Made by a program: the position numbers and the translations under genes | DNA from: Candidatus Hodarchaeaceae archaeon | GTDB lineage: Archaea > Hadarchaeota > Hadarchaeia > Hadarchaeales > Hadarchaeaceae | Direction: 5' to 3' | Assembly: GCA_030018135.1 (NCBI GenBank) | Contig: JASEGJ010000004.1 | Coordinates: 31-64,030, forward strand | Length of the DNA: 64,000 nt | The notes under the pieces: generated by a model | Told to the model about the DNA's origin: nothing | The model's database searches: none | Seen by the model: the letters and a program-made list of their open reading frames with translations, nothing else | Shown: positions 7,448 through 31,204 of the stretch, in pieces | Numbering within the stretch: the stretch's first letter is position 1 | How the letters are laid out: each line of letters starts with the position of its first letter

Positions 7448-7659
7448 TTGATCCCGAACGAAAATATGTTATTTCATCGGTTAAAATTCACGTCAGCGAT
7501 GATCTCGCCAAATTAAATGTCTTGAGCTATGCACGGCGGTGAAGTCCTCGCCGATTAGCCCAGCGTGCCAGTGCGGGCGGCAGCTGGTATTTTTTCTAAT
7601 TATCAACGTTAATTCTGGCAAAACGTTAGCTATTTAAGAGGGGCAAACAGATTGTTTTT

Positions 7660-7893: not shown

Positions 7894-9093
7894 CTACAAC
7901 TTTCGTACATACCCCATGAGCTTGTGCAGGCCAATCAAACGAAGCAGGCCGGGCCCCTTCTTCGCGAGGGCTTTGATGAGTTCCCCGTGATGATCGAAAT
8001 CGACATGCTCAAGTACGAGGGCCCCAACATCTGGCCTCCCGAGGAGTTCGAACGCCGAGTTTAAATCGTCATCGGACATTTTTTGAAGCACTTCCCTTGC
8101 GTACATGCCAAGCTTAAACTCCGCGCCAAACCTCTTGGCGACCGCGCGCTCGTACCCACGTAGGGCTTTCGCCGTTACTTCGCCCTCCAGAGCCTTCGAT
8201 GCGACATCTGCCGCCAGTTTTGCACACGATAATCCAATGTAAATGCCGCCGCCCGTCAGGGGCTTTACCTGCCCCGCCGCGTCGCCGACCAGCATGACGC
8301 TGTCCGCATAAATCTTTCGCGTGAAGGGGTGCGGGATCAGCCCCGCGGTGAAGTGTAGGACCTTGTCGGCATCGATTTTCTCCGACGCAACCGGATGTTT
8401 CTTCATGAAGTCGGCCAGCTTTCGCAGGGGCGAGCCCTCCGATGTACCGAGGCCCACCCTACAAACATCGCCGGCCGGCACGATCCAGGCGAAGAACCCC
8501 GGCGCGAAAGCACGACCGAAGTACAACTCCGCGGTACTCGCTTCGACATCGGCGATTGTCTCGACTTGTGCACAGCTGATACAGCGGGGGGACTTTAACA
8601 AGCCGGTTTTTCGCGCGATTAAAGAGGCTGGGCCGTCGGCGCCCATCACCAAGCGTGCCTTGATCTCGTCCCTCCCGCTTGTCCGCTTAACTTTCACGAT
8701 TACTCCCCGCCCGCGCGAAATATCGAGGCACTTGGTTTTCATCAGCAAGGTCGTGCCTGCGTTGACGGCGCCGACCGCGAGTTCTCGGTCAAAAGATGCG
8801 CGGTCGATCACCAGCGCTTCAACTTTTCCCCTGCCCAAGGGCACAGCGTCGCCCGAGGGCGGGTAAAAAACCGCACCCTTGAGATCGCCCAATACCCACT
8901 CGCCCGGCTTGATGCCGAGTTCCCCGAGCCCGCTTGTCCCCAAGATGCCAGCGCAGCATACCGGATGGCCGATCTCGGCGTGCTCCTCTATTATCGCAAC
9001 ATCGAACCCTCGTTCTGCCAACAACTTGCCTATGAAGCAACCCGCCGGGCCAGCGCCGACTATGGCAACGTCGTACAACATGCCGCCCGGCAA
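7894..9093 (-). CDS. Geranylgeranyl reductase family FAD-dependent oxidoreductase (digeranylgeranylglycerophospholipid reductase-like)
   Basis: Contains YDVAIVGAGPAG FAD motif. 399 aa. The start may be at M6 (9078). Confidence 0.8.
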   Translation of the reverse strand: MPGGMLYDVAIVGAGPAGCFIGKLLAERGFDVAIIEEHAEIGHPVCCAGILGTSGLGELGIKPGEWVLGDLKGAVFYPPSGDAVPLGRGKVEALVIDRASFDRELAVGAVNAGTTLLMKTKCLDISRGRGVIVKVKRTSGRDEIKARLVMGADGPASLIARKTGLLKSPRCISCAQVETIADVEASTAELYFGRAFAPGFFAWIVPAGDVCRVGLGTSEGSPLRKLADFMKKHPVASEKIDADKVLHFTAGLIPHPFTRKIYADSVMLVGDAAGQVKPLTGGGIYIGLSCAKLAADVASKALEGEVTAKALRGYERAVAKRFGAEFKLGMYAREVLQKMSDDDLNSAFELLGRPDVGALVLEHVDFDHHGELIKALAKKGPGLLRLIGLHKLMGYVRKL

Positions 9094-9132
9094 TGATTTT
9101 AAAGCGTGAATAGATAATCCTACCGATGTGAT

Positions 9133-11703: not shown

Positions 11704-13266
11704 TTGGATTTAAGGTCGCTTATCGATGGCTTGGGTATCAATGAGAGGAAGGTCCTGCTCGCGCTTCAGCAGCTCAGCGGGGAAGCGGACATCGCGGACA
11801 TCGAGGGGCAAACTGGCCTCGAGCACGTGGCGGTGATGCGCGCGGCGCTAAACTTGGAGCAACGGGGGCTTGTCCGGATCAAGGAGCGGAGGCGGTCGAT
11901 GGCTGCGATAACCGAGGAGGGCCGGATGTACGCTAAGGACGGGCTGCCAGAGCGGCGCATGCTCCGGGCGCTGGTCGAACTCGCCCCCTGCACCGCGGAG
12001 GATGCTGCCGACCGCGCGGGGCTTCCCGAAGAGCAACTGCAGATCTCACTCGGCTGGCTGAGTCGCAAGGGCTGGGCGGTGTTCATCAAGCAGGCGGGGC
12101 GGGCGATGCTCGCACCGACGAGGGCCGGCGAGGAGGCGCTAAAGGAAAAGCGGTCGGACGAGCGGCTTTTGGAGGTGCTCGCCTCGGGCAACGTCGCGGA
12201 GGACGAGCTGCCGGAAGATTTGAGGCTCGAGCTAGATATCCTCAAAAAGCGTGAGTTGGCCTTCGTCAAGGAGGAAGTCTGGAGGAGGCTCGTGCTAACG
12301 GAGCTTGGCGAGCGGGCGCTGGCGCTGGGCATCGAACTCGTTGAGGAGGTCAGCGAGCTCACCCATGAGCTGCTGGCGAGCGGCAGGTGGCGGGAGGTTA
12401 GGTTCAGGCGCTACGATGTCACCGCCCCTGGGCCGCCGGTCTATCCGGGCAGGGTTCACCCCCAGCAGCGGGTCATCGACGAGCTTCGCGAGATCCTGCT
12501 GGAGATGGGGTTCGTCGAGGTCAAGAGCAACTTGGTCGAGTCGGAGTTCTGGAACTTCGACGCCCTCTTCCAAGCTCAAGATCACCCGGCGCGCGAGATC
12601 CACGATAGCCTCTCGCTCTCGAGGCCCGAGCGGACGAAACTTCCTTCATCGGCGTTGGTCAAACGGGTGGCCGCGGCCCACGAGCGCGGCGTCGCCGGGT
12701 CGACCGGCTGGGGATACAAGTTCGACATAGGTATAAGCAGAAGACCCGTGCTGTGCTCACAGACAACCGCCGCCACCGTGCGGTACCTTGCTTCACACCC
12801 AAAGCCGCCCGTCAAGGTATTATGCATTGATCGCGTCTACCGTCACGAGAGGATAGACTACAAGCACCTCGCCGAGTTCTACCAATGCGAAGGTATAGTG
12901 ATGGACCGCGGGCTCACGCTGCGTGACATGCTTGGGTACCTTAAGCAAATAATGGTCAAGCTTGGCTTCAAAAAAATAAGGTTCATGCCTTCGTATTTCC
13001 CCTATACGGAGCCCTCGGTACAAGCTCAGGTATATCACGAGGAGAAGCGGGAGTGGTTAGAAATCTTAGGAGCTGGGATCTTTAGACCAGAGTTGCTTCA
13101 TCCGCTTGGCATCCGTTATCCTGTGCTGGCTTGGGGCATTGGGTTGAGCAGGCTGATCATGGCTAGGCTAGGATTAGAAGATATCAGGGACCTTTTCCGC
13201 AATGACCTCCAGTGGATTTCGAGCTTTGTTTATACCAGGGGAACCAGAAAAGAATCCTCATCGTAG
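11704..13266 (+). CDS. pheS: Phenylalanine--tRNA ligase alpha subunit (archaeal)
   Basis: Class II aaRS motifs (FRRYDVTAPGPPVYPG...HPAREIHDS...FRPE). 520 aa. Confidence 0.9.
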   Translation: MDLRSLIDGLGINERKVLLALQQLSGEADIADIEGQTGLEHVAVMRAALNLEQRGLVRIKERRRSMAAITEEGRMYAKDGLPERRMLRALVELAPCTAEDAADRAGLPEEQLQISLGWLSRKGWAVFIKQAGRAMLAPTRAGEEALKEKRSDERLLEVLASGNVAEDELPEDLRLELDILKKRELAFVKEEVWRRLVLTELGERALALGIELVEEVSELTHELLASGRWREVRFRRYDVTAPGPPVYPGRVHPQQRVIDELREILLEMGFVEVKSNLVESEFWNFDALFQAQDHPAREIHDSLSLSRPERTKLPSSALVKRVAAAHERGVAGSTGWGYKFDIGISRRPVLCSQTTAATVRYLASHPKPPVKVLCIDRVYRHERIDYKHLAEFYQCEGIVMDRGLTLRDMLGYLKQIMVKLGFKKIRFMPSYFPYTEPSVQAQVYHEEKREWLEILGAGIFRPELLHPLGIRYPVLAWGIGLSRLIMARLGLEDIRDLFRNDLQWISSFVYTRGTRKESSS

Positions 13267-13489
13267 CGGGGGCGATGTTTCTGAAAAGAGAAATACTTTG
13301 GATGAACTGCGAAAAAGAAGAAAGAGGTGCCCAAAACTTAAATGGGCCTCATGTAGCGGGGCACTTCAAACCCCTTTATCGGCTTCGAAAGTACAGTAGG
13401 CGGGTTCCGGAATTCATTAAGGTAATCAAACCCCGCATCAAAGCTCAGCCCAGCACTGGTAGTCTAGCGTTTGGAGTGGAGGTTAGTTA

Positions 13490-15133
13490 GTGCCAGCAAT
13501 TACAGTTAGCTATCGCGACCTCTGCGGGCTCCTCGGCAAACGCATCAAGCTGGAGCCCCTAAAGCGAAGCTTGTTGATGATGGGGATCGAGGCGGAGGCG
13601 ACGGGCGACGACCTCAGGCTCGAGGTGGCCCACAACCGCCCGGACCTGCTGAGCGCGGAGGGCGTGGCGAGGGCACTAAAGGGTTTTTTGGGTATCGAGG
13701 TGGGCCTGCCGTTCTACGGGCTTAGAAGCTCGGGCATAGTCATGCGGGTCGATCCGAGCACGAGGGCGGTTAGGCCCTATGCCGTCGGGGGGGTCGTCGA
13801 GGGCGTTAGGCTGACGGATGCGGCAGTCGCCCAGCTGATGCAGGTTCAGGACAAGCTGCACGAAACCCTCGGGCGAAATCGGAGGAGGGTGGCGATAGGA
13901 ATTCACGACTTGGATAAGGTCCGACCACCATTCCGCTACACCGCCGTCGCGCCAGACGGGATCAAATTTGTGCCGCTGGACATGAGCCGCGAACTCACAC
14001 CGGCCCAAATTCTGCAGGAGCACCCGAAGGGCATAGAGTATGCCCACATCCTTCGCGAGTTCGACCGCTATCCCCTGATCGTCGACTCGAACGGCGACGT
14101 GCTCTCGATGCCGCCGATAATCAACGGGGAGCTCACCCGCGTGACGGAAGGGACCAACCGACTTTTCATCGACGTCACGGGCACCGACGAGCTGGCGGTG
14201 AATCAAGCACTGACGATCCTGATGACCGGGTTCGCGGAGCGGGGATTCAAGTTGCGCTCGATCGTCGTCAGGTACCCTAACCGCCGCATCCGGGTGCCGA
14301 ACCTCAGGGCCACCCGCACCCGCCTGAACGTTCGGGGTGCCAACGAGACCATAGGCCTCGACTTGAAGCCCCGCGAGGCGGCTGAGATAATGAAACGGAT
14401 GCGCTTCGGCATCGTTGGCAAGAAGGGCGACAACCTCACTTTACTGGTTCCCCCATACCGAACAGATGTGATGCACGAGGTCGACCTCATCGAGGATCTC
14501 GCGGTGGGCTACGGCTATGACAAGCTCAAACCCGCATCGCCGAGGGTGGTGACGGTCGGCGAGCGGCATCCGCTCGAGGCATTGAGCGACATGGTCAGGC
14601 GCGCGCTGACTGGCCTGGGCTTCATGGAGGTGATGACCTTCACGCTTACGAACCCTCGCACGAACTTTGAGCTCATGAGGGCCGGGGGCACGGCCGCGAC
14701 CATCGCGAACCCAGTATCGGAGGAGTACACCATCCTCCGGACTTGGCTCCTTCCAAGCCTGATGTCCGTGCTCAAGGCAAACAGGCCCCACCCGCTGCCC
14801 CAGCGCGTTTTCGAGGTGGGCGACCTAGTGCTGCTTGACGAGGATGCCGAGACGGGCGCTAGGAACGTGCGGAGGGTCGCGGCCGCGGTCATCGGCGACC
14901 TGGGCAACTTTACGTACATCAAGGCGGTGACCGAGGCGGTCCTCCGGGATCTCGGTATCGCTCACGAAATCAGGCCCTTGGACCATCCGAGCTTCCTTGA
15001 GGGAAGGGCGGCGGAAGTTGCCGCGGACGGCAGGTGCCTCGGCATGATCGGCGAGCTTCACCCGGAGGTCATCCTAAACTTCGAGCTCGGGCATCCGGTT
15101 GCGGCTTTTGAACTCGACCTGCCAATGGGCTGA
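13490..15133 (+). CDS. pheT: Phenylalanine--tRNA ligase beta subunit (archaeal)
   Basis: GTG start. B3/B4 and B5 domains. 547 aa. Lies 220 nt downstream of pheS. Confidence 0.9.
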   Translation: MPAITVSYRDLCGLLGKRIKLEPLKRSLLMMGIEAEATGDDLRLEVAHNRPDLLSAEGVARALKGFLGIEVGLPFYGLRSSGIVMRVDPSTRAVRPYAVGGVVEGVRLTDAAVAQLMQVQDKLHETLGRNRRRVAIGIHDLDKVRPPFRYTAVAPDGIKFVPLDMSRELTPAQILQEHPKGIEYAHILREFDRYPLIVDSNGDVLSMPPIINGELTRVTEGTNRLFIDVTGTDELAVNQALTILMTGFAERGFKLRSIVVRYPNRRIRVPNLRATRTRLNVRGANETIGLDLKPREAAEIMKRMRFGIVGKKGDNLTLLVPPYRTDVMHEVDLIEDLAVGYGYDKLKPASPRVVTVGERHPLEALSDMVRRALTGLGFMEVMTFTLTNPRTNFELMRAGGTAATIANPVSEEYTILRTWLLPSLMSVLKANRPHPLPQRVFEVGDLVLLDEDAETGARNVRRVAAAVIGDLGNFTYIKAVTEAVLRDLGIAHEIRPLDHPSFLEGRAAEVAADGRCLGMIGELHPEVILNFELGHPVAAFELDLPMG

Positions 15134-15563
15134 TCTTTTGCGCGAGTCCCGAGCGATCGCAGAGTACATCGCCGAAAATTACCCCTCGGCAAGGAGGATC
15201 GTAGAGGTGGGCGTCGGCAGGCTTCCTGTGGCGGCGGTCGAGCTGAGCAAGCTATTGCCCGCCTGCGAAATCGTCGTCACCGACATCGCCGAACCGCCGA
15301 GTCTGCCGGGCGGCATAAGGTTCGTGCGCGACGACGTGACCGATCCTGACCTAAGCGTCTACGAGGGTGCGGCCTTGATATACTCGATGCGGCCTCCGCC
15401 GGAACTGCAGCCCTACCTGCTGAGGCTCGCGCGGACGGCGGGCGCGGACCTGCTCTTAAAGCCACTGACCGGAGAAAGCGTGCAGGTGGGCGGGAAGCTG
15501 GTGAACTACCGCGGGGCGGCCTTTTACGTCTTTAAGCAGTCACGATCTAGGATGAGCCTTTAA
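15099..15563 (+). CDS. UPF0146-like archaeal protein (methyltransferase-fold)
   Basis: 154 aa with a VEVGVGRLP Rossmann-like motif. The start is uncertain (overlaps the pheT end). Confidence 0.45.
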   Translation: MRLLNSTCQWADLLRESRAIAEYIAENYPSARRIVEVGVGRLPVAAVELSKLLPACEIVVTDIAEPPSLPGGIRFVRDDVTDPDLSVYEGAALIYSMRPPPELQPYLLRLARTAGADLLLKPLTGESVQVGGKLVNYRGAAFYVFKQSRSRMSL

Positions 15564-15791
15564 CTCCTGCGAAGTCTCACGTATAAGGCCGATAGGCGAG
15601 TTCCCGTGAACCACATCCAAGGACCAACCGGGAGATCCTGCCCGCTCTTCAACCCCAAAAACAGGGCAATTGGGGCAAGCAGAGAGAAGTTTAAAAGTAA
15701 AAGGGAGAAATAAAGACAGAAATCAAAAATCGAGATAGGAAACAGAGGAATGATTAGAAAAAGGAAGGCGTAGATTGCTCAGATGGCATAA

Positions 15792-16142
15792 AAAGATGGC
15801 GGTTATTTGCACTCGATCCAGTTCGCCAAGCCCTCATTGGTTTGCGACATTCAAGAGATCTTCAGGGGCATGATAGACAAATTTCTAATCGGATATGCTC
15901 AGAAACTAAATCAGGATAGTTTTGAAAGAAAAGGCGAAAGGATGTTTTTGAAGCGAAAGGAGAGCTACAAGCTGATAAAGGCGATCAACAAACTACTCGA
16001 CAGGCGGATTGAACATCAAAGAATCAAGAAGTATGGAGAACACTCGAAGATAAGGACGGCAATTGGGGAGGAACCGATGAAGCTAGCGCAATATCTTAGG
16101 GATGAAAAGGAAAATTATGAACCTATTGGAGCTTTTCTATGA
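15792..16142 (+). pseudogene. cas1: CRISPR-associated Cas1, C-terminal fragment only (N-terminal two-thirds missing)
   Basis: ...GGYLHSIQFAKPSLVCDIQEIFRGMIDKFLIGYA...IRTAIGEEPMKLAQYLRDEKENYEPIG aligns to the Cas1 C-terminus (GFlH...sLvlDlmEefRp.vD...sYr.aielQa.kLa..l.ge.~Y.Pf). The reading frame opens at a stop with no ATG (TTG only). Upstream sequence is non-coding and AT-rich. Confidence 0.65.
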
Positions 16143-17284
16143 AGCACATTTTTGTGATCGGCGAAAAGGAAAAGCACGAAATCGAAGTAGACCACGGGTG
16201 GCTGGGTAAGGTAACTGTAAGGGTTGATGGAAAAATCAGGTCAAGTAAGCGCCTTCGGAGCTTACAAAGAGGCTCCTTCTGTAGATTAAAAGTCGGCGAA
16301 GAAGAGAAACATGAAGCTGAACTTAAGTTTGAAGGGCTTTTTCCAAAAATCAGATGTTATGTCGATGGATATCCCCAACTACGGGAGGCAATTATTCCTT
16401 CCAGATGGAAGAAGCCAATCTCTTTAACTACAATCTTAGTTGTGTGCATCATTGTGGGTTCCATCAGCTTTTACGGCGGAGCAACATGGATAATTAGAGA
16501 ATATGATAAAGCACTTGAAAATCTAACTAAAGAATTTACAATTCTTCCTCCATACGTTCAGATTGAAAATAGAAATGTAAATATAGTTTTCAAAGCGTCT
16601 AATGGAACGTTGCACCACTGGACTATTGGGGTAGATGTCCTAGAGGCACAAATTGAGCTGGGGTATTTAAGAAGAGAATTAATACCAGATTTATTTCTGC
16701 CAATGATAGAAGGTATCTACGAGGCGTATTTGCCGTTAGCTGTTTTAGCCGGCATCAGCTATACTGAGATACAAGAGGTATATGCATCAATAGAAAATCT
16801 GAGGTCTTTAGGTATTCAATACATCAACTTAACTGATAACGAAACAGGCGAAAATCATCTTGTAATTGATTTCAGACCTTTTGTTATAAACAATTTCGCT
16901 GAGGTTATATCCAATCTTTATCATGACTTAGGAAGTAGTGACAAAGCTCTTGTTTACGAAATTTGGTATATAGTCACCCAACTGACAACTTATCACTCAG
17001 AAATAAAGGAAACTCCCAGATTCCCATTAGAAACATTGATCGGTGGCGGTGGGGATTGCGAAGATTTAGCAATATTGATAGCGAGCATGCTAAAGGGAGT
17101 CCCAGCAAATTACACCATTAAATTGGTTTATATGGACGCCGATAATCCAACAGACCCAAAGGATGTTAATCATGTCATCGTTTGGGTCGAAACTCCCAGC
17201 GGGTACAAAACTTTTGTCGATGGGACTTCTCATACGGATATGTGTCCATTCACAGAAGTTATTGGGTGGTATTTTGACGTTTAA
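16139..17284 (+). CDS. Transglutaminase-like (Cys-His-Asp) putative cysteine protease, membrane-anchored
   Basis: One TM segment near residue 105. TGc core motifs GGGGDCEDLAILIASML (Cys), NHVIVWVE (His) and FVDGTS (Asp). Low GC. Confidence 0.65.
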   Translation: MKHIFVIGEKEKHEIEVDHGWLGKVTVRVDGKIRSSKRLRSLQRGSFCRLKVGEEEKHEAELKFEGLFPKIRCYVDGYPQLREAIIPSRWKKPISLTTILVVCIIVGSISFYGGATWIIREYDKALENLTKEFTILPPYVQIENRNVNIVFKASNGTLHHWTIGVDVLEAQIELGYLRRELIPDLFLPMIEGIYEAYLPLAVLAGISYTEIQEVYASIENLRSLGIQYINLTDNETGENHLVIDFRPFVINNFAEVISNLYHDLGSSDKALVYEIWYIVTQLTTYHSEIKETPRFPLETLIGGGGDCEDLAILIASMLKGVPANYTIKLVYMDADNPTDPKDVNHVIVWVETPSGYKTFVDGTSHTDMCPFTEVIGWYFDV

Positions 17285-17816
17285 AATTTGAAATTAAGGA
17301 GGAAAAATTTGGACATAACTTTGGACATAACTGGAATCATCGTAACTGTTTGCTGCACTGTTGCGGGTTCAGTAGCAATCGCATTTGTAAATGCATCACA
17401 AATTTGTCAATACATAACTAGAGAGGAAGTTTTTGTTTCAACATAAGAAGATTTTTAGGTGGAGTAAGTTCTAAACGGAGGCCCAGAGCCCCCATTCCGT
17501 TTCCTTTGAAAGATGGTTATTTGCTTGAGAAAGCAAATGAAAAGCCAGATAAGGAAGAGCGGTTATTTGGTTGAAAAAGCAGGTGAAAGTTTAAAGATCG
17601 GCTTGGCTTTTCTTTAACTTCTCCGGTCATTTTCGGTCATTATGGGTAATCCCATCGTTTAAATAAAGCAATAAAAGTATGTGGTTTTTCAGACCGAGTT
17701 ACAGGCAAAAGGATGTTTTAATTAGCCTTTTGTGGCTTTTCTTTGACCTCTTCGGTCATAACGAGAACAGCAAATCATTTAAAGCGCTTAAGACCACTAT
17801 CTTCAGAGGAGGTAAA

Positions 17817-18563
17817 AAAATGAGGAAAATAATAACATTGCTCATGGGCCTAGCGATCGTTTTGAGCACAACTGTATCTGCCAGCGCACAAAAATCCCAT
17901 GATGTCGCCAACGCGTCCCAAGATATCATCATCGAGAAGTACGTACACTACGTCACCCCTCCGTGGGCGGGCTGGCGAGTCTCGACGGACGAAAACGACC
18001 CATCTTACAAGCTTTTCAGGGGCGGGGTCAAGTGGTCGTCTGCAAGCTTGCCTGTGACCTATCACGTAGATCCGGATAACGCTCCAGTGGGAGCCGTCTC
18101 AGAAGTTCAAACGGCGTTTGAAACTTGGGACAATGTTGTAACAACCGAGCTATACAATTATGCCATTGTGAATTCGGACGCGCAACCAAGTTTGGACACT
18201 GGAGTAGTCGATTACGTAAACACGGTCACCTGGCGCCCGATACCTGACACCACGATAATAGCTGTGACCTACCTCGCTTGGAATCGCGTGACCAAGGAAC
18301 TTGTCGAATTTGACATAATCTTTAACAGCAATTTGGCTTGGGACATCGACAGAGACGGCGAGGGTGGAGTCGAATTAACTGGCGATAATTTCGATGTCAG
18401 AAACATAGCCACTCATGAAGCTGGCCACACGCTAGTGCTTGACGATCTATACAAGCCAAAAGCCAGGGAGCTGACAATGTACGGCTATTCGGAGCCAAGG
18501 GAAACGAAGAAAAGATCGCTAGGGCTCGGAGACAGGCTGGGAATAGAGAAGCTCTACGCCTGA
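17817..18563 (+). CDS. Secreted zinc metalloprotease, metzincin-like (HExxHxxGxxD with a Met-turn)
   Basis: RBS GGAGGT. Signal peptide MRKIITLLMGLAIVLSTTVSASA. HEAGHTLVLDD zinc motif. Downstream TMYGY Met-turn. Low GC. Confidence 0.7.
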   Translation, partial: KMRKIITLLMGLAIVLSTTVSASAQKSHDVANASQDIIIEKYVHYVTPPWAGWRVSTDENDPSYKLFRGGVKWSSASLPVTYHVDPDNAPVGAVSEVQTAFETWDNVVTTELYNYAIVNSDAQPSLDTGVVDYVNTVTWRPIPDTTIIAVTYLAWNRVTKELVEFDIIFNSNLAWDIDRDGEGGVELTGDNFDVRNIATHEAGHTLVLDDLYKPKARELTMYGYSEPRETKKRSLGLGDRLGIEKLYA

Positions 18564-18591
18564 TTGGTAAAAGTCTCTGAGGCGTTGGTAT

Positions 18592-18630
18592 GGGGGCGCC
18601 GCGAGCGCCTCGATTTTTTATTTTTCTAAA
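18592..18630 (+). terminator. Hairpin plus T-tract terminator after the metalloprotease gene
   Basis: GGGGGCGCCGCGAGCGCCTC stem-loop followed by GATTTTTTATTTTTC. Confidence 0.4.
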
Positions 18631-19256
18631 AGGTTCACCCTGACCCCTCAAACCACCCATTTCCCAGCCCCCTCAACAACCCTTTCAAAAAGCGTTGACG
18701 GCAAATCTTGACCCAAATTCGCTGACCCTAATTCGATTTTGGCGATTTCTGGCGAAGGCAAACGGGGCGAGAATCTGCGGCATAAATTCGAAAGGAGCGA
18801 TTTAAAGGCTTTTCTTCCTGTTCCCAAGCTGTATAGGGCTGATTTTGACAAGTTCTATACCAGAGAAGTTTCAGATGGCATATTTTTGAGGCTGAAAATG
18901 GGAAAATAGTAAAAAAAGTTAAGATTTAACTTTTATAATCTTGGCAACTCCGACCTTAAAATCATACTGCTATCTCGGCTTTCAAACGTTTGAACGCCGC
19001 CATAATGGGGGTCTGCTATATGAGGAAACGTTTCCTCATGGGTCTTCTCGGTGTGGTCTGAACGCCACCGTGGTGGAAGCCCAACTTTTTTCAGGGGGCA
19101 GAGCCTGCCCTTTGAAATTTTAGGGGAACTCCACCATGGTGGAAGCCCGCCCCCGCGTTTCAGAACCTAGATTTTGAAACCTTTGAGGCCAACGGGTGGG
19201 ATAGCGCCTTGGAGTCAAAAAAAATAAAGGTAGGGAAAACAAAGATAACTCTAAAG

Positions 19257-21008
19257 TTATCGTGCCGTAATTTCTGGCTGTTCTTTAATCAGTAGAATAC
19301 TGATTATGCGGGCATAAGCCGGCCGCGTTATGATCACGGCCGAAAGCACGCCTATGATGGTGATTAGCGCAAAGCCCCTCATTGCCCCGAAGCCGAGCGA
19401 TGCGAGCGAGACCATCGCCGCGATGGTCGTTGCAGCAGCGGCGAAAATTATAGAAAAAGCCCTCTCGATCCGCCCACTTAGGCTCACCCTCCTTGCTTGC
19501 GGCAACCCGCCTCGAAGCACCTCATCTGTTATTATAATTTGGTGGTCCACCCCCGTGCCGATGACTGTGAGGAGGCCACCAATTTCAGGCAATCCTATGG
19601 TCCAACGAATGGCAGATGCCAAGCCGAGCGTGATGATCAGCTCACATAACATGGTTCCCACAATCGCACCTGCAATTTTCAAACGTCGATAACGCAGGTA
19701 AAGTAGTGCCCAAATCCCGATAAGTGCGCCAAGCCCAGCCCTGAGGGCCTCGCTTTTGATTTCCGCACCTAGTCGTGGTTCGATCTCGGTTTCGCCCTCA
19801 AATGATATCCTAACGGGCAACCTTTGAGATAGCAATATCTCCAAATCTTTAGCGTCTGCCTCGGCATCTCTCTTAGATGTCCTAACGCCGGTAATCTCCA
19901 CATCTTTAGCCACTGTTCCAGCGACTTCTGCAGCAATCTCAGGCGCGGATTTCACGCCACAAGCTCGTTGTATCCACTCGTCAATCGATTCGCCAGTTAT
20001 CTTGGGGATGCTCTCAATTGCCGGATAAAGCGTTATGACATTATCGATAACGCTTTCAGCGAAATCTCTTTCGTCTCCAAGGAGAACCACACGAGTTTTG
20101 ATCCCTTCCTGTTCCTGTAAAAATTGAAAAGTTTCGGGCGGTATAAAATCAAATAGTACCCCAACTGCAGGGACCTGCAGGTAAAAACTATACGCGCCCG
20201 CAGTAACATAAAACATCCTTGCATTTTCATCATAAGTCATATCGGTGGGTTGCTCGACCAAAAGCTGTTTGTTGAATACAAGTATCGCATCGTCCGGACG
20301 GTCGAGATACATTACTAGTCTATGTCCACCCTTGCCAGTTGATGCCTCCGCAAACCGTTGGGCACCATTCTCGGAGATTCTAAATGGTACATGATACTTG
20401 TAATTACCATCTGGAAGAGATTCAAGCCTTACCAAACCAACACGCTCAATGTCGCCGCCGCGCAGAACCAAGGTATTTTCGATGAATGCCTCCAGTCTGC
20501 CTTGTCTTCCAAGCCTTTCCTTTGCACGCTCTGGTTCGAGGCCAGAAATCTCAAAAAGTATGAAGTTAAGCCCAACGGGTTTAAATTGAGTACCGATAGT
20601 TCCAAATGGATCAACTCGCGCTTGGAGAATGTGCATAACTTCGTTACGCGTTGCATCGCTTACTTTTTCTTGCATGTCCACAACCTTGCCTAAATTGTCG
20701 ATTATTGTCGCGACTAAATTTTCGGTAACGGCTCTACCGATCTCAACTGTGACCTCTTTGGCAATCTCATTGTAGGATATCGCCCTGACTGTCAAGAGCA
20801 GGTTATCCTTCAGCGTGACAACAAGGTCGTCAAGCACATTCTCATTATCAACTTTGATCGTAACGTGCGATGCCTCTAACCTTAACATTATCCTCGAGCC
20901 ACCGGCGATGTCCACCCCATATTGAATACTTGGCCTTATGAGAAGTGCCGCCGACAAAAGCGCAAGGATCACGAGTAGCGAGATGCGCCATTCCTTAAAT
21001 GCTGACAT
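19257..21008 (-). CDS. secD: Protein-export membrane protein SecD
   Basis: 583 aa. N-terminal TM segment, large periplasmic domain, C-terminal six-TM bundle. Confidence 0.9.
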   Translation of the reverse strand: MSAFKEWRISLLVILALLSAALLIRPSIQYGVDIAGGSRIMLRLEASHVTIKVDNENVLDDLVVTLKDNLLLTVRAISYNEIAKEVTVEIGRAVTENLVATIIDNLGKVVDMQEKVSDATRNEVMHILQARVDPFGTIGTQFKPVGLNFILFEISGLEPERAKERLGRQGRLEAFIENTLVLRGGDIERVGLVRLESLPDGNYKYHVPFRISENGAQRFAEASTGKGGHRLVMYLDRPDDAILVFNKQLLVEQPTDMTYDENARMFYVTAGAYSFYLQVPAVGVLFDFIPPETFQFLQEQEGIKTRVVLLGDERDFAESVIDNVITLYPAIESIPKITGESIDEWIQRACGVKSAPEIAAEVAGTVAKDVEITGVRTSKRDAEADAKDLEILLSQRLPVRISFEGETEIEPRLGAEIKSEALRAGLGALIGIWALLYLRYRRLKIAGAIVGTMLCELIITLGLASAIRWTIGLPEIGGLLTVIGTGVDHQIIITDEVLRGGLPQARRVSLSGRIERAFSIIFAAAATTIAAMVSLASLGFGAMRGFALITIIGVLSAVIITRPAYARIISILLIKEQPEITAR

Positions 21009-21888
21009 AGTACTCCCTCCCCTTCAGGCGCTCAGCATACCACAACACCATGCCCGCGTTTAGGAACCAAGTATTGATGGTGCCAACAAGGATGCCAAAT
21101 ATCAAAACAGCCGTCAACTGGTAAAGCGCCGGAGTTATCGTAATAACATTTATAGTAACAACCGCCAGCAGAGTCGTACCGCTCATCATCAGACCAGTCT
21201 TCATGGCATCGGCCATGCGCTCACGTACTTCGCCGCCCAAGCGCTTTAACACGCGAACTGACAACAGGATATGCGTGTCGACCAAGTAGCCAACCAGCAT
21301 GAGTATGCCGGCAACTGATGCCAAACTAAGGGGTACTCCAAATGCTGCCATGAATCCAACTACGCCCAACATGTCGAGGCCGATGCAGAGTAGAATGACG
21401 CCAACGGTTAGGCTGTGCCTAAAAGTGATGAAGATGATGATCGCCATCGCAATTACGGCGACGGTTATCGCCCACTGCGCCTGCTCCTTATAGATGCTGG
21501 TGATTATTGGCCCCGCTGATTCCGCGCTGTAGCTTCCAACTACGCTAAATTCTTCCGAAAGAATTTCCCTAAGCTGAGCCTTCTCGTCGTCGCTCAAAAC
21601 TTTATCCGTCTCGACATCTAGACCAAACCTGCCTGTTAGGCGGGTACGGTCTTCGGTGGCCTTCACATCGACCCCAGCGCCGAGAAACTCTTTGACCCTA
21701 GGCTCAATAGCACCAATGTCGGGACTATTGTCAAGCTCCCGCACGCGTATGAGCGTGCCGCCCTTGAATTCCATGCTCATGGGAACGCCGCGGATGAATA
21801 TAGCCGCCGCTAGGATTGCCGTTAGAACCAAGGAGACCGCAATCATCTGACGGGAATTCATATGCTTAACTGGCCAGGTGATGTCCAT
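20995..21888 (-). CDS. secF: Protein-export membrane protein SecF
   Basis: SecF family. Start chosen at MDITWPV to avoid overlapping the divergent trmI promoter. Overlaps secD by 14 nt. Confidence 0.85.
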   Translation of the reverse strand: MDITWPVKHMNSRQMIAVSLVLTAILAAAIFIRGVPMSMEFKGGTLIRVRELDNSPDIGAIEPRVKEFLGAGVDVKATEDRTRLTGRFGLDVETDKVLSDDEKAQLREILSEEFSVVGSYSAESAGPIITSIYKEQAQWAITVAVIAMAIIIFITFRHSLTVGVILLCIGLDMLGVVGFMAAFGVPLSLASVAGILMLVGYLVDTHILLSVRVLKRLGGEVRERMADAMKTGLMMSGTTLLAVVTINVITITPALYQLTAVLIFGILVGTINTWFLNAGMVLWYAERLKGREYYVSI

Positions 21889-21954
21889 ATCGCTCCTCTT
21901 TTTTACGTCGTGTGCCGCGTATATAAGTTCGGCGAGGCAAAAACTGGTGATTAG

Positions 21955-22710
21955 ATGATCGAGGAAGGCGAAAGGGTAGTCCTCATAGACGAAAGGGGCC
22001 GGAAGTATTTGGTCGCGGCTGAACCTATGCAGCTTCATACAGATCTTGGTGTAGTCGACCTAAGCACCGTGATCGGACAAGAACCCGGCGCGAGGCTGAA
22101 ATCGCACACCGACAAGGAGTTCATCGTGCTAAGGCCGCGCATAACCGACTATCTGCAAAAGATGAGGCGCGTGCCGCAGATAATGTTGCCGAAGGATGCG
22201 GCGCAGATAGTTGCATACACAGGCGTTGGTCCCGGCGATTTGGTCGTGGATGCGGGCACCGGCTCGGGCGCATTGGCGATATTTTTGGGCAACCTCGTGA
22301 GGCCAAATGGGCACGTGACCAGCTACGAGGTTAGGGAGGACTTTGCCCGTTTAGCTGAGCAAAACATTCGCGAGGCCGGCCTCAGCGACATCGTGAGGGT
22401 AAAGCTCAAGGATATCTACGAAGGTATCGATGAACGAGACATTGACTTAGTGACGCTCGACCTGGCACAACCTGAGCTGGCGCTACCTCACGTCGAGCTG
22501 GCGCTCAAACCCGGTGGACATTTAGCGGTGTTTTCGCCCTGCATCGAACATATCCAAAGGCTCTATCAGGAGTTGCCAAAATACCGATTTACGAATTGCC
22601 GCACTATCGAGTGCCTCGTTCGTGAATTTGAGGTTAGGCCTGGCGCTACCCGCCCCAGAACGCGCATGGTCGCGCACACGGGCTACCTTACCTTCGCACG
22701 CAGGGTGTAG
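21955..22710 (+). CDS. trmI: tRNA (adenine57/58-N1)-methyltransferase TrmI (Gcd14 family)
   Basis: SAM motif VVDAGTGSGALAIFL. 251 aa. Confidence 0.8.
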   Translation: MIEEGERVVLIDERGRKYLVAAEPMQLHTDLGVVDLSTVIGQEPGARLKSHTDKEFIVLRPRITDYLQKMRRVPQIMLPKDAAQIVAYTGVGPGDLVVDAGTGSGALAIFLGNLVRPNGHVTSYEVREDFARLAEQNIREAGLSDIVRVKLKDIYEGIDERDIDLVTLDLAQPELALPHVELALKPGGHLAVFSPCIEHIQRLYQELPKYRFTNCRTIECLVREFEVRPGATRPRTRMVAHTGYLTFARRV

Positions 22711-22722
22711 ATCGGTAGGACA

Positions 22723-23115
22723 TTAAACTAGCCGCGCTTTGTACCCGTAATAAATGACCCCATCTTCGCCCTCTTGCCCCACCCGTCTGAATACCATCTC
22801 TACATCATCGCCGATCTTGACTTGGTTTGGATCGCAGTCCGTAATTTGCGCGGTTAGGCGCGGACCTTCCTCGAGTTCCACTATCGCCAGTGCGTAAGGC
22901 GCCTGACCTTCAAAGCCGTTTGGCGGCACATGGACAACGGTAAACGAAACTATCTTGCCGCGATCCTTCAGCTTATGTGGCTCGAGCTTTCCCACGCGCC
23001 TGCAACCGGGACAGATAAAGCGGGGGGGGAATAACACCCTGTTACAGTTCTTGCATTTCACGCCAATCAGATTGTATCGGTTTGGTATCTCGCGCCAAAA
23101 TCTTGGGACACCCAT
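22723..23115 (-). CDS. DUF35 OB-fold/zinc-ribbon protein (scaffold of the archaeal thiolase/HMG-CoA synthase complex)
   Basis: 130 aa with CKNC...CPGC zinc ribbon. Lies immediately downstream of thiolase and HMGCS on the same strand. Confidence 0.8.
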   Translation of the reverse strand: MGVPRFWREIPNRYNLIGVKCKNCNRVLFPPRFICPGCRRVGKLEPHKLKDRGKIVSFTVVHVPPNGFEGQAPYALAIVELEEGPRLTAQITDCDPNQVKIGDDVEMVFRRVGQEGEDGVIYYGYKARLV

Positions 23116-24279
23116 TTAATCACCCCTCTTAAATATGTGTACGACAGCTGTCCCCCCAGACCCTCCAACGTTGTGCGTTAGCCCGATTTGTGCGCCCTCG
23201 ACCTGCCTTTTGCCCGCCTCACCTGATAATTGCTGTGCAATCTCTACGGCTTGAGCAATCCCAGTTGCACCAACCGGATGTCCTTTGCCCTTGAGTCCGC
23301 CGCTTGTGTTGATCGGTATCCTGCCGCCCAGCGCCGTCTCCCCCTGCTCAGTTATTTTTCCGCCCTCCCCCTTCTTGCAGAAGCCGAGATCTTCGATCGC
23401 CATTATCTCAGCTATGGTGAAGCAATCGTGGACTTCGGCCAAGTCTACATCCCGCGCCTCAACGCCTGCCATTTTGTATGCCGCCCTCACCGCTTCAACT
23501 GTCGCGCGCAAGCCAGTTAATGTCTGACGATCGTGGAGGGATATGGCATCGCTGGCTTGTCCGGTCCCAGCAATTAAGATTGGGGTGTCCGTGTAACGCC
23601 TTGCCTTCTCAGCTGGGACCAAGATCGCACAGGCGGCGCCATCGGTGATAGGTGAACAATCCAATAGCTTTAGGGGGGACGCGACCAGCGCGGATTTCAG
23701 CACGTCCTCTATGGTTACCTCCATGTGATATTGCGCGCATGGGTTAAAACAGGCATTATGGTGATTTTTGACAGCCACCATGGCCATTTGTTCCTCCGTC
23801 GTGCCATATTCGTGCATGTGGCGCCTAGCCATGAGCGCATAGATGCCCGGAAAGGTCGATCCGACGAAGGCCTCCCACTCCTGATCCGCGGCGGTCGCAA
23901 GCGCTTCGGTGGTCTGTTCGGCCAAAATATCCGTCATCTTCTCTATACCTGCTGCGACAACGATGTCGTGTATGCCGGAGGCCACCGCTATGAATGCTTG
24001 GCGCAGCGCTAGCCCACCGGAAGCGCAAGCGGCCTCAACCCTAGTGCAGGGTATTGGCAATAGTCCAGCGTGATCCACGATGAGCGAGGCTATATGCTCT
24101 TGGTGGATGAATTGTCCAGCTGACATGTTTCCAACGTACATTGCATCGATTTGCTTACCGTCAATGCCAGCATCCTCGATGGCTCGCGCACCAGCTTCGA
24201 CAATCATCTGCCTAAACGAGACATCCCAGAGTTCACCGAACTTTGTCAATCCCACGCCTATTATCGCTACCTTTCGCAT
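23116..24279 (-). CDS. Acetyl-CoA C-acetyltransferase (archaeal thiolase)
   Basis: Thiolase-fold protein. Active-site Cys in VEAACASGG. 387 aa. Confidence 0.85.
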
Positions 24280-25338
24280 CTATCTCACCAGCAATCGCCT
24301 AAGCCTAGCATAAGTGCTGTAGTCGATGTTTATCCCGCGGTTTACATAGTCCAGCACCTTGGGTGCCATATCCCGTTTTGTCTCGATGGCGTCCTGTACC
24401 ATCACGCTAAAAGCATCGCTGCCCGCGCCAGAACCGTAAGAGACCATGAGGATCCGCTCGCCCGGTTTTGCTTGATCTAACACGGCAGCCAAACCTATCA
24501 TCGTCGACCCAGAGTAGGTATTGCCGATCTTGACCACGAGCAATCCAGGCAACACCTGTTCGCTCGAGAACCCTAGCTCCTTTGCAACTTGCAGCGGGAA
24601 CTTGCCATTCGGTTGATGGAAGACCGCATATGCAAAATCTCGCGACGTAAGCTGCAGCTGCCGAAGTAGGGCACTTGCCGCAGAGGTGACATGCTTGAAA
24701 TAAGCTGGCTTACCGGTAAAGCGGCCGCCATGTCTAGGGTATGGCTGCATTTCCCTGCGCCAGAAGTCAGGGGTATCCGTAGTATAAGAACATGTGCCCT
24801 CGATGGTGGCTAAAGCCCCAGCGCCATTCTTACCTATTATGAGGGCACCCCCGCCTGCGGCAGCGGTGTACTCCAACGGGTCACCGGGCGCGCCTTGGGC
24901 AGTATCAGCGCCTATTGCCATGCCGTATTTCATCATGCGCGCCTCAACCATGCCCATACATGTTTGGATGCCCGCGGTGCCAGCCTTGCAGGCGAACTCA
25001 TAGTCGGCAGCCGTGAGGTTTGGCGTGGCCTCGATGGCCTCAGCTACTATGGTGGCGGTCGGCTTGACGGCATAGGGATGCGATTCAGAGCCAACGTAGA
25101 TGGCACCGATTTCTTTTGGATCGACTCCACCCCTCTTTACCGCATTGCACGCCGCCTCGACAGCTATGGTCGCCGTGTCCTCATCAGGCCCGGGGACGGA
25201 TTTCTCCTCGAGCAACAAACCGCGCTTGACCCTCTCGGCATCGTCGCCCCAAACCCTAGCCACTTCTTCGACCTTAAGCCGATATCTTGGGATGTAAACT
25301 CCATAACCGATAATCCCAACGTCCATAAATGTTGTCAC
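24280..25338 (-). CDS. hmgS: Hydroxymethylglutaryl-CoA synthase (archaeal)
   Basis: 352 aa with [13 protein letters not shown] motifs. The stop abuts the thiolase start. Confidence 0.85.
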
Positions 25339-25427
25339 CCAAGAGTCAAATTTTATGCTAATCGTCTAAGATGGGCGATAAATATCTTTCGATTGTCTAC
25401 AAAAACTTCGACAGTTGCCGTGGAAAA

Positions 25428-26147
25428 TTAGGCTGCGCACTTGCGTAAACTTTCGAGTAGGTCGCTCACGGAGGGCAATCGGGAGATAACCAACGGCACG
25501 CGCAAAATCTCGGCGATTTTTATGCCCAAGGGATCTACCTGTTTAAGCTCGCCGTGGAAAATTACCATGCCGGGTGTAATTCCCATAACCTTTACTGCGA
25601 CCATGGGCGAGCGCCCAGTTGTAACACCAGTGAATACGAGTGCCCGCTCGGTGGTCAGGCCGTAAAGCCTAGTAAAATCGTCCGCCGAGAGCCCAATTAC
25701 GGCTTTATAGCTATCAACGATGGTGTAGCCGAAGAGCTTTTGATCGAGCAATTCCTTGTTTATGATGACCTCGCCTTCGACTGCCTTGCAAAGCGTCTTT
25801 CCGTCTATTGGCTCCCTGAATTCGCGTATGTCAAGCACGATGTCGGGCGGTAGCTGGGTGCCAAACATGTGCATAAAAGCCCGCGCGACCTGCCCCCCCT
25901 GTTTCTCATCTACCTTGATGAACATCTCAACAATGCGCCTTACAGTGGCCACTCCCGGCGATTTGCGCCGCCCCGCCTCGTAGTCGCTTATTACAGAGGA
26001 GGAGATGTGAAGGGCTTCCGCGAGCGTGGTTTGACTCATGCCGAATATTTCTCTCCACCTCTTGAGGGCGGAGCCGGGGTCCTCTGATAATGCGATGTCC
26101 CCAGCTATCCATCGCGCAACCCTGTCCTTTATTGGGTCCGGAAACAT
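25428..26147 (-). CDS. HTH (XRE-type) transcriptional regulator with uncharacterised C-terminal domain
   Basis: N-terminal MSQTTLAEALHISSSVISDYEAG helix-turn-helix. Confidence 0.5.
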   Translation of the reverse strand: MFPDPIKDRVARWIAGDIALSEDPGSALKRWREIFGMSQTTLAEALHISSSVISDYEAGRRKSPGVATVRRIVEMFIKVDEKQGGQVARAFMHMFGTQLPPDIVLDIREFREPIDGKTLCKAVEGEVIINKELLDQKLFGYTIVDSYKAVIGLSADDFTRLYGLTTERALVFTGVTTGRSPMVAVKVMGITPGMVIFHGELKQVDPLGIKIAEILRVPLVISRLPSVSDLLESLRKCAA

Positions 26148-26221
26148 CGGCGCACCATCTACCTATCAGTCTCAAGGCATAAATTTATTCAGAATTAGCC
26201 CGTTGATGAACGCCGAAAGAT

Positions 26222-26800
26222 CTACTTGATTTTTCCGAGTTCTTTCACCAACTTGAGCACATCGGCTTTTGTCACGATGCCTGCCGCTCGGCCGCGGTCT
26301 ATAACCAGAACGGCCGGATTATGCTCGAGCAAATGATAGACAGTATCGATATCTGTGTCTTTGCTAATACTTGGAAATGGATTATCCATCGTCTCTTCGA
26401 CATTTCGTCGCACGAGCTTAAACATATCCTCGCCATCGGCGATTTTACGCATAATTGTCGTTTCAGATATAGCACCCACCTGTGTTGCACCATCTAATAT
26501 GGGAAGTTGGGATATGTTATAGGACTCCATTAACCGAATGGCTTTCTCAATTTTATCGTTTGGTCTGACGGAGATAATTGGCGTAGCCATTATTTGTCCA
26601 GCCGTAACACGTTTTTCGACCCTCGCCCTTTTAAGTGCCGTTAGGATTTTTTCAAGTGTCGAAACTCGAGGGTCCGCCGTGCCAGCCTCGATTTTGGCAA
26701 TATAGGCTTGGGTTACCCCCGCAAGCTCCGCTAATTGCGCCTGCGTCAGGCCAAGCTTTGCACGCAGGGTCCGTATCTCCGTGGGCTTCAGGATTCGCAT
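26222..26800 (-). CDS. HTH (XRE-type) plus CBS-pair transcriptional regulator
   Basis: LGLTQAQLAELAGVTQAYIAKIE HTH followed by two CBS motifs. Confidence 0.7.
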   Translation of the reverse strand: MRILKPTEIRTLRAKLGLTQAQLAELAGVTQAYIAKIEAGTADPRVSTLEKILTALKRARVEKRVTAGQIMATPIISVRPNDKIEKAIRLMESYNISQLPILDGATQVGAISETTIMRKIADGEDMFKLVRRNVEETMDNPFPSISKDTDIDTVYHLLEHNPAVLVIDRGRAAGIVTKADVLKLVKELGKIK

Positions 26801-26888
26801 CTGATCGCCGAATAATCCTACTAGTTATTTTTCCGGGAAAAACCTATAAATAGCTCACCTAAATAATCCAAATCCGCGAGGTGCGAAA

Positions 26889-30403: not shown

Positions 30404-30541
30404 GTTGAAAACTTGCATCATATCCAAAATAAACTGATAGCGTAGCCAATTGAATGCGCAAAAATGAGCACATAAAAAATAAATACTGAAAAGTTGAAAC
30501 TGCATCGGTTGTCGGAGGCAGTAATTTTGGACAGCGTTGAC

Positions 30542-30967: not shown

Positions 30968-31204
30968 GTGCTGCAGATGCAAGAGGTCGAAATAAAATTA
31001 GTCTATGACTCGTTTTCCCACGTCATGGCATATTTGGTCTATCCTCAAGAACTTCGCGAGAAAATTGACCGGGTGCTAGGCGAGAGTGAGAATATTAAGG
31101 TATTTACAGAAAAGCTTAAGCAGGTTATCTCGGTCGAGGCGGACTCCACCCATAAAACGGATGGCCAGATTTTTTTAAATGAGCTGCGAAAACACCTTAC
31201 CTAG
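30968..31204 (+). CDS. Small hypothetical protein (78 aa), possibly translationally coupled to lrp
   Basis: GTG abuts the lrp stop. No recognisable motif. Confidence 0.3.
   Translation: MLQMQEVEIKLVYDSFSHVMAYLVYPQELREKIDRVLGESENIKVFTEKLKQVISVEADSTHKTDGQIFLNELRKHLT

Follow-up and report, generated by a model that had tools for sequence, protein, structure and literature searches.

Casposons are self-replicating transposons that use a Cas1-like integrase, and the CRISPR adaptation machinery is thought to derive from them; to our knowledge, only four casposon families have been described. The sequence considered here lies within a 64-kb stretch of archaeal DNA (contig JASEGJ010000004.1; this whole stretch is referred to below as the window) and occupies an island at 15564-19256, between two convergently transcribed genes, UPF0146 on the plus strand and secD/secF on the minus strand. 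The island is very probably an immobile casposon remnant: the right arm of a 5'-deleted element, placed at a rearrangement junction and descended from a lineage that encodes a protein-primed-type family B DNA polymerase (pPolB).

The closest described systems are the family 1 casposons of Thaumarchaeota, such as NitAR1-C1 of Candidatus Nitrosopumilus koreensis (Krupovic et al. 2014, PMC4046053; PMC6563490; PMC8464041). In common with the intact relatives of the window element, they encode a Cas1 integrase of ~330-347 aa without a C-terminal helix-turn-helix (HTH) domain (the HTH-less casposase is established for family 1: PMC6563490, PMC8464041) and a protein-primed-type PolB (PF03175), and they have terminal inverted repeats (TIRs), together with a short target-site duplication (TSD) of ~13 bp. 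The 13-bp TSD was determined experimentally for a family 1 casposase (PMC8464041) and matches the target core found here. Insertion sites that lie between genes or at the 3' end of a protein-coding gene, tandem copies (tandem integration is known: PMC6563490, PMC4779613) and element-specific cargo that includes defence nucleases are likewise shared. In the searchable literature, protein-primed-PolB casposons (family 1) are reported from Thaumarchaeota only (PMC6563490, PMC9939771). The casposons of families 2 and 4 (Aciduliprofundum boonei AciBoo-C1; Methanosarcina mazei; PMC4779613, PMC6977970, PMC10359463) follow the same logic of casposase, PolB, TIR and TSD and, as here, form arrays by re-use of the target and are known as decayed copies; they differ in the C-terminal HTH of their ~405-aa casposases, in their PolB type, in usually targeting tRNA genes and in their HNH/HTH accessory genes.

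What identifies the island is the 3' end of a cas1 gene. The encoded stub matches positions 223-326 of 327 of TIGR00287 (E 4e-13) and Pfam Cas_Cas1 (8e-8), and in tblastn it is 74% identical to residues 215-326 of Cas1 at L086 and 77% identical to another stub at L002 (L numbers designate retrieved loci and contigs). In-frame stops lie directly upstream of it, and its C-terminus coincides with that of the family's full-length enzymes. E153, H218 and D230 are invariant in the Cas1 alignment; the stub, a pseudogene fragment, keeps the His and the Asp and lacks the catalytic Glu and the entire N-terminal domain. Comparison with the L002 stub yields a ratio of nonsynonymous to synonymous substitution rates (dN/dS) of 0.08, with no frameshift or stop over 113 codons. 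This low value is rejected as evidence of function because the two stubs were truncated independently (at codon 215 and at codon ~163-170, respectively) and most of their divergence is older than truncation. The remainder of the element is gone: tblastn finds neither pPolB nor the 210-aa and winged HTH (wHTH) genes of the intact relatives anywhere in the 64 kb, and TIR profiles find no left TIR there, not even as the trace of a local inversion. An inversion that left the left TIR and core genes elsewhere in the window is accordingly rejected, and because pPolB is absent from the 64 kb, the window copy is a fragment rather than a complete casposon.

The relatives of the stub show what an entire element of this type looks like. 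In L006, a contig of Hadarchaeota, a full-length 342-aa Cas1 gene directly precedes a homologue of the transglutaminase-like (TGase-like) gene that follows the stub in the island, and is itself preceded by genes for a wHTH and a 210-aa protein. Searching with this Cas1 retrieves a compact family of ~70 proteins of ~330 aa (317-354 aa), whose nearest named relative is a Nitrosopumilus Cas1 (34-35% identity). Intact elements of ~10 kb, with full-length Cas1 that is 74-87% identical to the stubs, are found in L086, L087 and L088/L089. Behind the left TIR they carry, on one strand, a ~150-aa CopG/NikA-like gene, a 650-aa pPolB (PF03175, E 1e-18) and a 210-222-aa HTH protein, and, on the opposite strand, a 255-295-aa wHTH protein and the casposase (~330 aa); variable cargo and the right TIR follow. 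The paired TIRs are ~150 nt long and 94-96% complementary; the Cas_Cas1 domain covers residues 4-278 of the 334-aa enzyme, for which no HTH family is reported; and the cargo ranges from a 370-aa protein without known identity to an HATPase_c protein with radical-SAM/DUF5131 genes, among others. Every Cas1 in a metagenome scan that is at least 40% identical to the L086 enzyme, and has enough flanking DNA, is accompanied by pPolB and the 210-aa gene. CRISPR-like arrays are missing from all 84 Cas1-bearing loci that were scanned, of which 80 come from the metagenome scan and the others are L086-L088 and L093. With ~150-nt TIRs and pPolB and without cas2 or CRISPR-like arrays, these units are casposons, and their Cas1 is a casposase. 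A sister clade of Cas1 proteins (L119-L173), 33-38% identical to the casposase, has neither this family's pPolB nor a CRISPR-like array within 10 kb; three of its copies (L124, L130 and L131) share one contig that, at 2.46 Mb, has the size of a chromosome, and it could be another Cas1-solo or mobile-element group.

The island also retains one proper casposon end. An nhmmer profile built from 10 ends of other elements has its sole match in the window at a right TIR (E 7.7e-20; an earlier profile gave E 4.8e-13), which is oriented as expected for a plus-strand cas1 and whose tip abuts a near-palindromic motif that occurs once in the window. The corresponding 12-nt core, TTAAA[A/T]TTTAAC, is found at both ends of the L086, L087 and L088 elements in direct orientation, and its asymmetric centre (AAAATTT or AAATTTT) is identical at the two ends of each. 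Because of this direct orientation and the matching centres, the motif reads as the duplication of a near-palindromic target, and would behave as a TSD, rather than as part of the inverted repeat (the target with its 12-13-bp core is also written TTAAAATTTAAC). Outside several intact elements there are further TIR copies, placed tip to tip across the target motif (L088 at 15628-15792 and 19270-19563; L086 at 13664-13824; L101 at 8978-9122), and L088 holds a second casposon tail-to-tail with the first, with an inverted cas1 fragment at the end of the locus. These arrangements indicate that casposon copies probably integrate repeatedly, side by side, at the duplicated palindromic target; that they accumulate in either orientation follows from the L088 neighbour, which still has its cas1 fragment. 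The site has other visitors. A 2.5-kb segment of L002 (3465-6017) with an 808-aa ORF (open reading frame) and inverted CCAAACCCAAAG / CTTTGGGTTTGG termini has the 12-nt motif on both sides and represents a second type of insertion at the TTAAATTTTAAC site, and GGGGTTTTGGGG-type flanks abut the target motif in L087 (2730-2749, 3830-3847) and L004 (7557-7575).

At its left edge the island carries a partial second copy of a casposon right end. Positions 15654-15791 align with L002 3280-3417 with a local score of 78, as against 20 +/- 3 (maximum 32) for 300 shuffles (blastn E 1e-10). This copy is oriented like the right TIR, breaks off at the conserved CTCAGATGGCATA box, ~45 nt before the tip, and is joined within a few bases to cas1 at codon ~215. 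The window thus has one full right TIR and one tip-less right-end copy, direct rather than inverted with respect to each other, and because the two ends are in direct orientation and one has no tip, the remnant is unable to transpose. The simplest reading is that two adjacent copies were followed by a deletion or rearrangement running from the neighbour's TIR into cas1. A single copy, or several next to each other, would first have been inserted by the casposase at the palindromic target, close to where secD, UPF0146 or both have their 3' ends; L088 has adjacent copies, and L086 has extra flanking TIR copies. A later deletion or rearrangement, with breakpoints in the neighbour's TIR and inside cas1, would have cost the element its left TIR, pPolB, HTH genes and two-thirds of cas1 and left the cargo genes stranded between housekeeping genes as still intact ORFs.

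Comparable fossils exist elsewhere. L002, whose TGase-like protein is 60% identical to that of the window, retains a 150-aa Cas1 fragment (cas1 from codon ~163) directly upstream of the TGase-like gene, followed by two ORFs and the right TIR; L144 retains cas1 from codon ~169, an 898-aa restriction-modification (RM)-like methyltransferase and the right TIR; and in L174 a 5'-truncated cas1 (from codon ~148) is fused to a pPolB fragment. Fossils consisting of 5'-truncated cas1, cargo and the right TIR are compatible with retention of useful cargo and also reflect the search strategy. In L004, a casposon remnant that keeps its right TIR (7454-7557) contains two 29-aa fragments resembling the Cas1 C-terminal tail, at 1665-1751 and, 3.6 kb further on, at 5276-5362; they lie 3' of the TGase-like gene, each just before another ORF, and hint at exchange of cargo by recombination at the 3' end of cas1.

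The close strains show that the island lies at a junction. In L091 (88.7% nucleotide identity over pheT-UPF0146), homology to the window ends at 15527 and is followed by RNase HII; the order pheS-pheT-UPF0146-(PKD)-RNase HII recurs in the more distant L092 (a 323-kb contig), and because both have it the UPF0146-RNase HII order is ancestral. On the other side, L094 is 94.9% identical over 6641 nt and collinear with window positions 25895-19256, to the base after the secD stop codon, after which come DUF61 and a V-ATPase-D-like gene. RNase HII, DUF61 and the V-ATPase-D-like gene are all missing from the 64-kb window. In view of these breaks and missing neighbours, the island is absent from the relatives and marks a junction between loci that in them lie apart; its boundaries at 15564 and 19256 agree with the homology breaks at 15527 and 19256. 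The original prediction, made from the letters alone, had located the Cas1 stub, the TGase-like and metzincin genes, the small hydrophobic ORF and the repeats correctly (Table 1), and had suggested an element, for instance a casposon, that was gained by horizontal transfer and has partly decayed. The retained right TIR, the existence of intact versions with Cas1, PolB and TIRs and the lack of the island in strains as close as L091 and L094 (89% and 95% nucleotide identity) bear that suggestion out; an ancestral gene order of the same composition in all relatives is not what was found.

Table 1. Coordinates of features in and next to the island (window positions; a dot marks features without a strand)
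Feature	Position	Strand	Remarks
UPF0146	15099-15563	+	Pfam E 9e-39; 3' of pheS/pheT
Junction DNA	15564-15653	.	UPF0146 stop codon to first casposon-derived sequence; no match in any fetched locus
Partial second copy of casposon right end (sub-terminal/TIR)	15654-15791	+	lacks the last ~45 nt, including tip and target motif
Casposase (cas1) 3' remnant	15798-16142	+	ORF 15807-16142, TTG start; ~residues 215-326 of a 334-aa enzyme
Cargo gene 1, membrane-anchored transglutaminase-like (papain-fold Cys-His) protein	16139-17284	+	381 aa; start overlaps cas1 stop (ATGA)
Small hydrophobic ORF	17288-17446	+	52 aa (45 aa from the TTG at 17309); unsupported as a gene
Non-coding spacer	17447-17819	.	repeat pairs 17515-17542/17561-17588 (28 nt) and 17604-17630/17733-17759 (27 nt); TTTAAATA box at ~17661
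Cargo gene 2, secreted matrixin-like zinc metalloprotease	17820-18563	+	signal peptide, HEAGHTLVLDD, TMY Met-turn
Right TIR of casposon	18790-18917	+	
Near-palindromic target-site motif	18918-18930	.	GTTAAGATTTAAC
Palindrome-rich DNA	18931-19256	.	326 nt, casposon end to secD stop codon; three ~23-nt repeats spaced 66-68 nt
secD/secF	19257-22038	-	right-hand neighbour of the island

The product of the first cargo gene scores 16.5 bits (E 0.011) against Pfam Transglut_core (PF01841), under the cut-off of 23; C307 and H345 within the motif GGDCED...NH are invariant in 23 homologues, with D or E at 361. The AlphaFold2 model (predicted local distance difference test score, pLDDT, 82) has an N-terminal cytoplasmic beta domain, one long transmembrane helix and an external catalytic domain. 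Foldseek matches it to the putative cysteine protease 3isr and to transglutaminase 3 (E 2e-3 to 2e-2; across the entire model the TM-scores reach only 0.2-0.3) and matches residues 1-88 to FAIM-NTD. Going by these modest matches, the protein would share with the transglutaminase-like cysteine proteases (PF01841; PDB 3ISR; LapG-type) a papain-like core, the Cys (GGDCED), the His (NH), a downstream acidic residue and an extracytoplasmic location; it differs from them in falling under the gathering score, in belonging to a separate, widespread, unnamed family and in its extra FAIM-NTD-like domain, and its activity is putative. The 167 homologues form a large family that includes Chloroflexota, DPANN, Nitrosopumilus and Hadarchaeota, of which the casposase-linked subfamily has the additional N-terminal beta domain. 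A TGase-like gene stands directly 3' of Cas1 in L006, L002 and the metagenome contigs L099 and L100 as well, with the 4-nt ATGA overlap conserved, and is a recurrent casposon cargo. The intact ORF probably encodes a membrane-anchored cysteine protease/transglutaminase-like enzyme that acts on the cell envelope or on extracellular protein.

The second cargo gene is unique to the window copy. The original prediction had called its product a HExxHxxGxxD metzincin: the metzincin part stands, with PF00413 at 29.5 bits (cut-off 24) and an Asp ligand at metzincin spacing, and the Gly does not, since the motif is HEAGHTLVLDD. Among 18 family members H199, E200, H203, D209 and M220 do not vary, and the signature HExGHxxxLxD...TMY is invariant family-wide. 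The family is large (2581 cluster representatives at E<=1e-3, the nearest 74% identical). With the small secreted metzincins (matrixin M10; snapalysin M7) the protein shares HExxH, a third zinc ligand placed at +6 relative to the second His, the Met-turn, a single domain of ~25 kDa and a signal peptide; its third ligand is Asp, as in snapalysin, and the metzincin Gly is not conserved in its family. The ORF, which is intact, probably encodes a secreted zinc protease whose substrate would be the cell envelope or extracellular protein. No matrixin homologue is found in other casposon loci or beside other TGase-like genes (L002, L004, L006, L099/L100 and 80 metagenome loci), and none in viral contigs. 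The suggestion that protease and transglutaminase form a paired surface module consequently does not hold as a conserved arrangement. Nor did the small hydrophobic ORF between the two genes fare well: a start codon preceded by a well-spaced Shine-Dalgarno sequence is indeed present in frame, at 17309 rather than 17311, and the 5' part of the ORF is a 12-nt tandem duplication (17308-17332); there is no family match, no homologue in the fetched loci and no tblastn match outside the sample of origin. The 28-nt repeats upstream of the matrixin gene have internal hairpins, and these spacer repeats and the TTTAAATA box are possibly operator or promoter elements of a matrixin regulatory region. PHROGs and PADLOC return generic Cas1 matches for the stub only, so the cargo is not assigned to a defence system.

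Beyond the right TIR, the DNA up to secD is rich in short palindromes, among them ATGAGGAAACGTTTCCTCAT (19020-19039), GTTTCAGAACCTAGATTTTGAAAC and a CCACCRTGGTGG repeat that occurs twice, 66 nt apart. Its plus strand folds far better than shuffles (z -5.35), which its minus strand does not (z -1.9). A weak inverted-TIR trace is seen at 18914-18952 (E 0.012 in a 4-kb search). Neither the fetched loci nor Rfam contain a homologue of this DNA, and it is absent from the 95%-identical strain L094.

Several observations weigh against the reconstruction as a casposon right arm. The 326 nt between TIR and secD are unaccounted for by it. The window has only one genuine terminus, and for that reason a TSD pair is not demonstrable; the left-edge fragment is recognized by similarity to the L002 right end only and is missed by the general TIR profile. 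Taken alone, the stub's dN/dS leaves room for selection on it. What ties the matrixin gene to the element is its position in the cas1-to-TIR interval, because a step in GC content at ~17.8 kb coincides with one of two gaps among the Logan contigs retrieved: 15873-16033 and 17741-18886, the latter with the matrixin gene and the inner part of the TIR, are present in the contig of the metagenome-assembled genome only. As to the course of events, either original insertion site (the secD or the UPF0146 locus) is compatible with the data, as are deletion, inversion and translocation.

The persistence of cargo in dead elements has a functional interpretation, in which the TGase-like enzyme, perhaps together with the protease, benefits the host and the stub is kept as a promoter or for translational coupling. 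Three independent fossils (the window, L002 and L144) keep the 3' piece of cas1, cargo and the right TIR; the overlap of cas1 stop and TGase-like start is conserved; and the TGase-like gene is under purifying selection (dN/dS 0.18-0.23), with the stub still open over its length. However, the fossils were found via cargo or Cas1 searches, which makes their retention partly an ascertainment effect, the low dN/dS mostly records divergence while the genes sat in active elements, and the cargo varies between fossils (an RM-like enzyme in L144). The island, being absent from close strains, is no fixed trait of the host. Domestication of a cargo operon is rather unlikely, though it deserves some weight.

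It is less probable still, but worth spelling out, that the contig is an assembly chimera in which a UPF0146-cas1 stub-TGase segment and a matrixin-TIR-secD segment were joined through casposon-related repeats of the community, the adjacency of pheST/UPF0146 and secDF being artificial. Both flanks are synteny breaks relative to close strains, and the neighbours expected from those strains are missing from the 64 kb; the Logan contigs of this sample are interrupted at 15872, 16034, 17740 and 18887; and the GC content steps from ~38% to ~50% at ~17.8 kb. Against this, cas1 stub, cargo and right TIR have the order and orientation of a single casposon arm, and the independent Logan assembly reproduces 12855-15872 (L090), the cas1-TGase block at 16034-17740 and 18887-31008 (L095) at 100% identity, so that L090 and L095 cover both outer junctions of the island. 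The break at 17740, where contig L001 ends, falls in the second copy of the local 27-nt repeat. The scenario is kept at low probability because the two internal gaps lack Logan confirmation. A chimeric contig would not alter the casposon origin of either half, since L090 contains the junction at which cas1 is truncated.

That the island is instead the relic of a CRISPR-Cas locus, with the stub as a leftover adaptation module and the repeats at 18988-19148 as a degenerate array, is very improbable. The Cas1 of the Cas1-Cas2 module has a homologous fold and the same active-site residues, and the stub matches all generic Cas1 profiles; the three ~23-nt repeats have CRISPR-like spacing; and the best PDB match by sequence of the intact relative is a CRISPR Cas1 (4n06, E 5e-23), with the M. 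mazei casposase (6opm, 1e-18) scoring below it. Placement by PDB sequence similarity is set aside as uninformative, CRISPR Cas1 and casposase scoring alike. The stub's 74-77% identity is to Cas1 genes in TIR-bounded pPolB elements without cas2 or arrays; neither cas2, cas4, a leader nor an array is found here or in close relatives; the gene after the stub is the TGase-like gene and not cas2; the window, like the scanned Cas1-bearing loci, contains no CRISPR array; and the three repeats, each a palindrome in itself and only 76-91% alike, are situated beyond the casposon TIR. The alternative of a CRISPR-Cas remnant, which the original prediction had offered beside the casposon, therefore finds no support.

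The base composition of the island is foreign. GC content falls from 0.62-0.63 at 15000-15599 to 0.37-0.43 at 15600-17799 and then rises to ~0.50 over the matrixin gene, in a window that elsewhere ranges from 0.46 to 0.65 per kb. The predicted sharp drop relative to ~60% flanks is therefore seen at the left edge and not at the right, because secD, outside the island, has 48.5% GC itself. The TGase-like gene has a GC content of 0.36 at third codon positions (GC3), as against 0.48-0.84 in all other long ORFs of the window; the matrixin gene (50% GC, GC3 0.58) lies within their range. The repeats at 17515/17561, 17604/17733 and 18988/19060/19126 are each unique in the 64 kb, where shuffling predicts 0 matches. 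A vertically inherited, ancestral low-GC region, for which one might cite the heterogeneous GC of the genome and the below-average secDF next door, is scarcely credible given the closest available strains without the island on both sides, the outlying GC3 of the TGase-like gene and the transposon end and transposase fragment that the region carries.

Blastn in distant mode finds no similarity of the island to known plasmids or phages, and ARAGORN and Rfam detect neither tRNA nor Rfam family near it, so that tRNA-linked integration is rejected. Far from the island, two sequences resembling tRNA 3' ends (GGGTTCGAATCCC...CACC) lie 162 nt apart, at 1384-1411 and 1546-1573, upstream of a tRNA-Leu (1942-2029). 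Neither ARAGORN nor Rfam calls a tRNA at either; possible readings are tRNAs that contain an intron or are split, and att-type duplicates of a tRNA 3' end.

How the casposon lineage represented by the island relates to family 1 can be stated in outline. In pairwise comparison with one Nitrosopumilus element (L093), Cas1 is 34% identical (E 2e-23) and pPolB 23% (E 6e-17), which suggests very distant, family-1-like casposons. Unlike family 1, the elements have pPolB and cas1 divergently transcribed, with the wHTH gene directly upstream of cas1; where family 1 has 3-4 conserved small genes before pPolB (59, 111 and 105 aa in L093), there is a single 210-222-aa HTH protein before it and a ~150-aa CopG/NikA-like protein after it. 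The target is the near-palindrome described above, and the hosts are not Thaumarchaeota, those relatives that bear a name belonging to Hadarchaeota; of the copy in the window, a fragment is left. A literature search, of a body that is incomplete and hence proves no novelty, turned up no report of casposons in Hadarchaeota or Asgard archaea. On the matter of hosts, the NCBI label of the window is Candidatus Hodarchaeaceae (Asgard), the best named UPF0146 homologues belong to Hadesarchaea/Hadarchaeales (68-72% identity) and the closest named casposon-bearing contig, L006, is from Hadarchaeota; a mix-up of the names Hodarchaeaceae and Hadarchaeaceae is plausible from these similarities.

It is possible, and we advance it tentatively, that these elements constitute an undescribed casposon lineage of Hadarchaeota and other uncultivated archaea, defined by pPolB, an HTH-less casposase (23-34% identity to family 1 across the two proteins), a different gene order, a palindromic target and recurrent TGase-like cargo. 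With such a target, copies of the element could accumulate in either orientation, as could at least one unrelated element whose termini are CCCAAACC, and repeated decay would yield fossils of cas1 3' end, cargo and right TIR, whose hosts may keep the TGase-like enzyme after the transposon has died.

The window feature itself is a dead, degraded copy, an ordinary genomic fossil, of a casposon lineage not found described in the literature searched. Its Cas1 fragment is no evidence of CRISPR immunity in this genome, the adjacency of pheST/UPF0146 and secDF is a strain-specific rearrangement junction, and the two surface or secreted hydrolases are to be counted as transposon cargo, not core genes. 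The intact ~10-kb relatives, with their defined TIRs and short palindromic target, would be convenient substrates for the biochemistry of integration, and through them Cas1-based transposition becomes more diverse and extends to more hosts.

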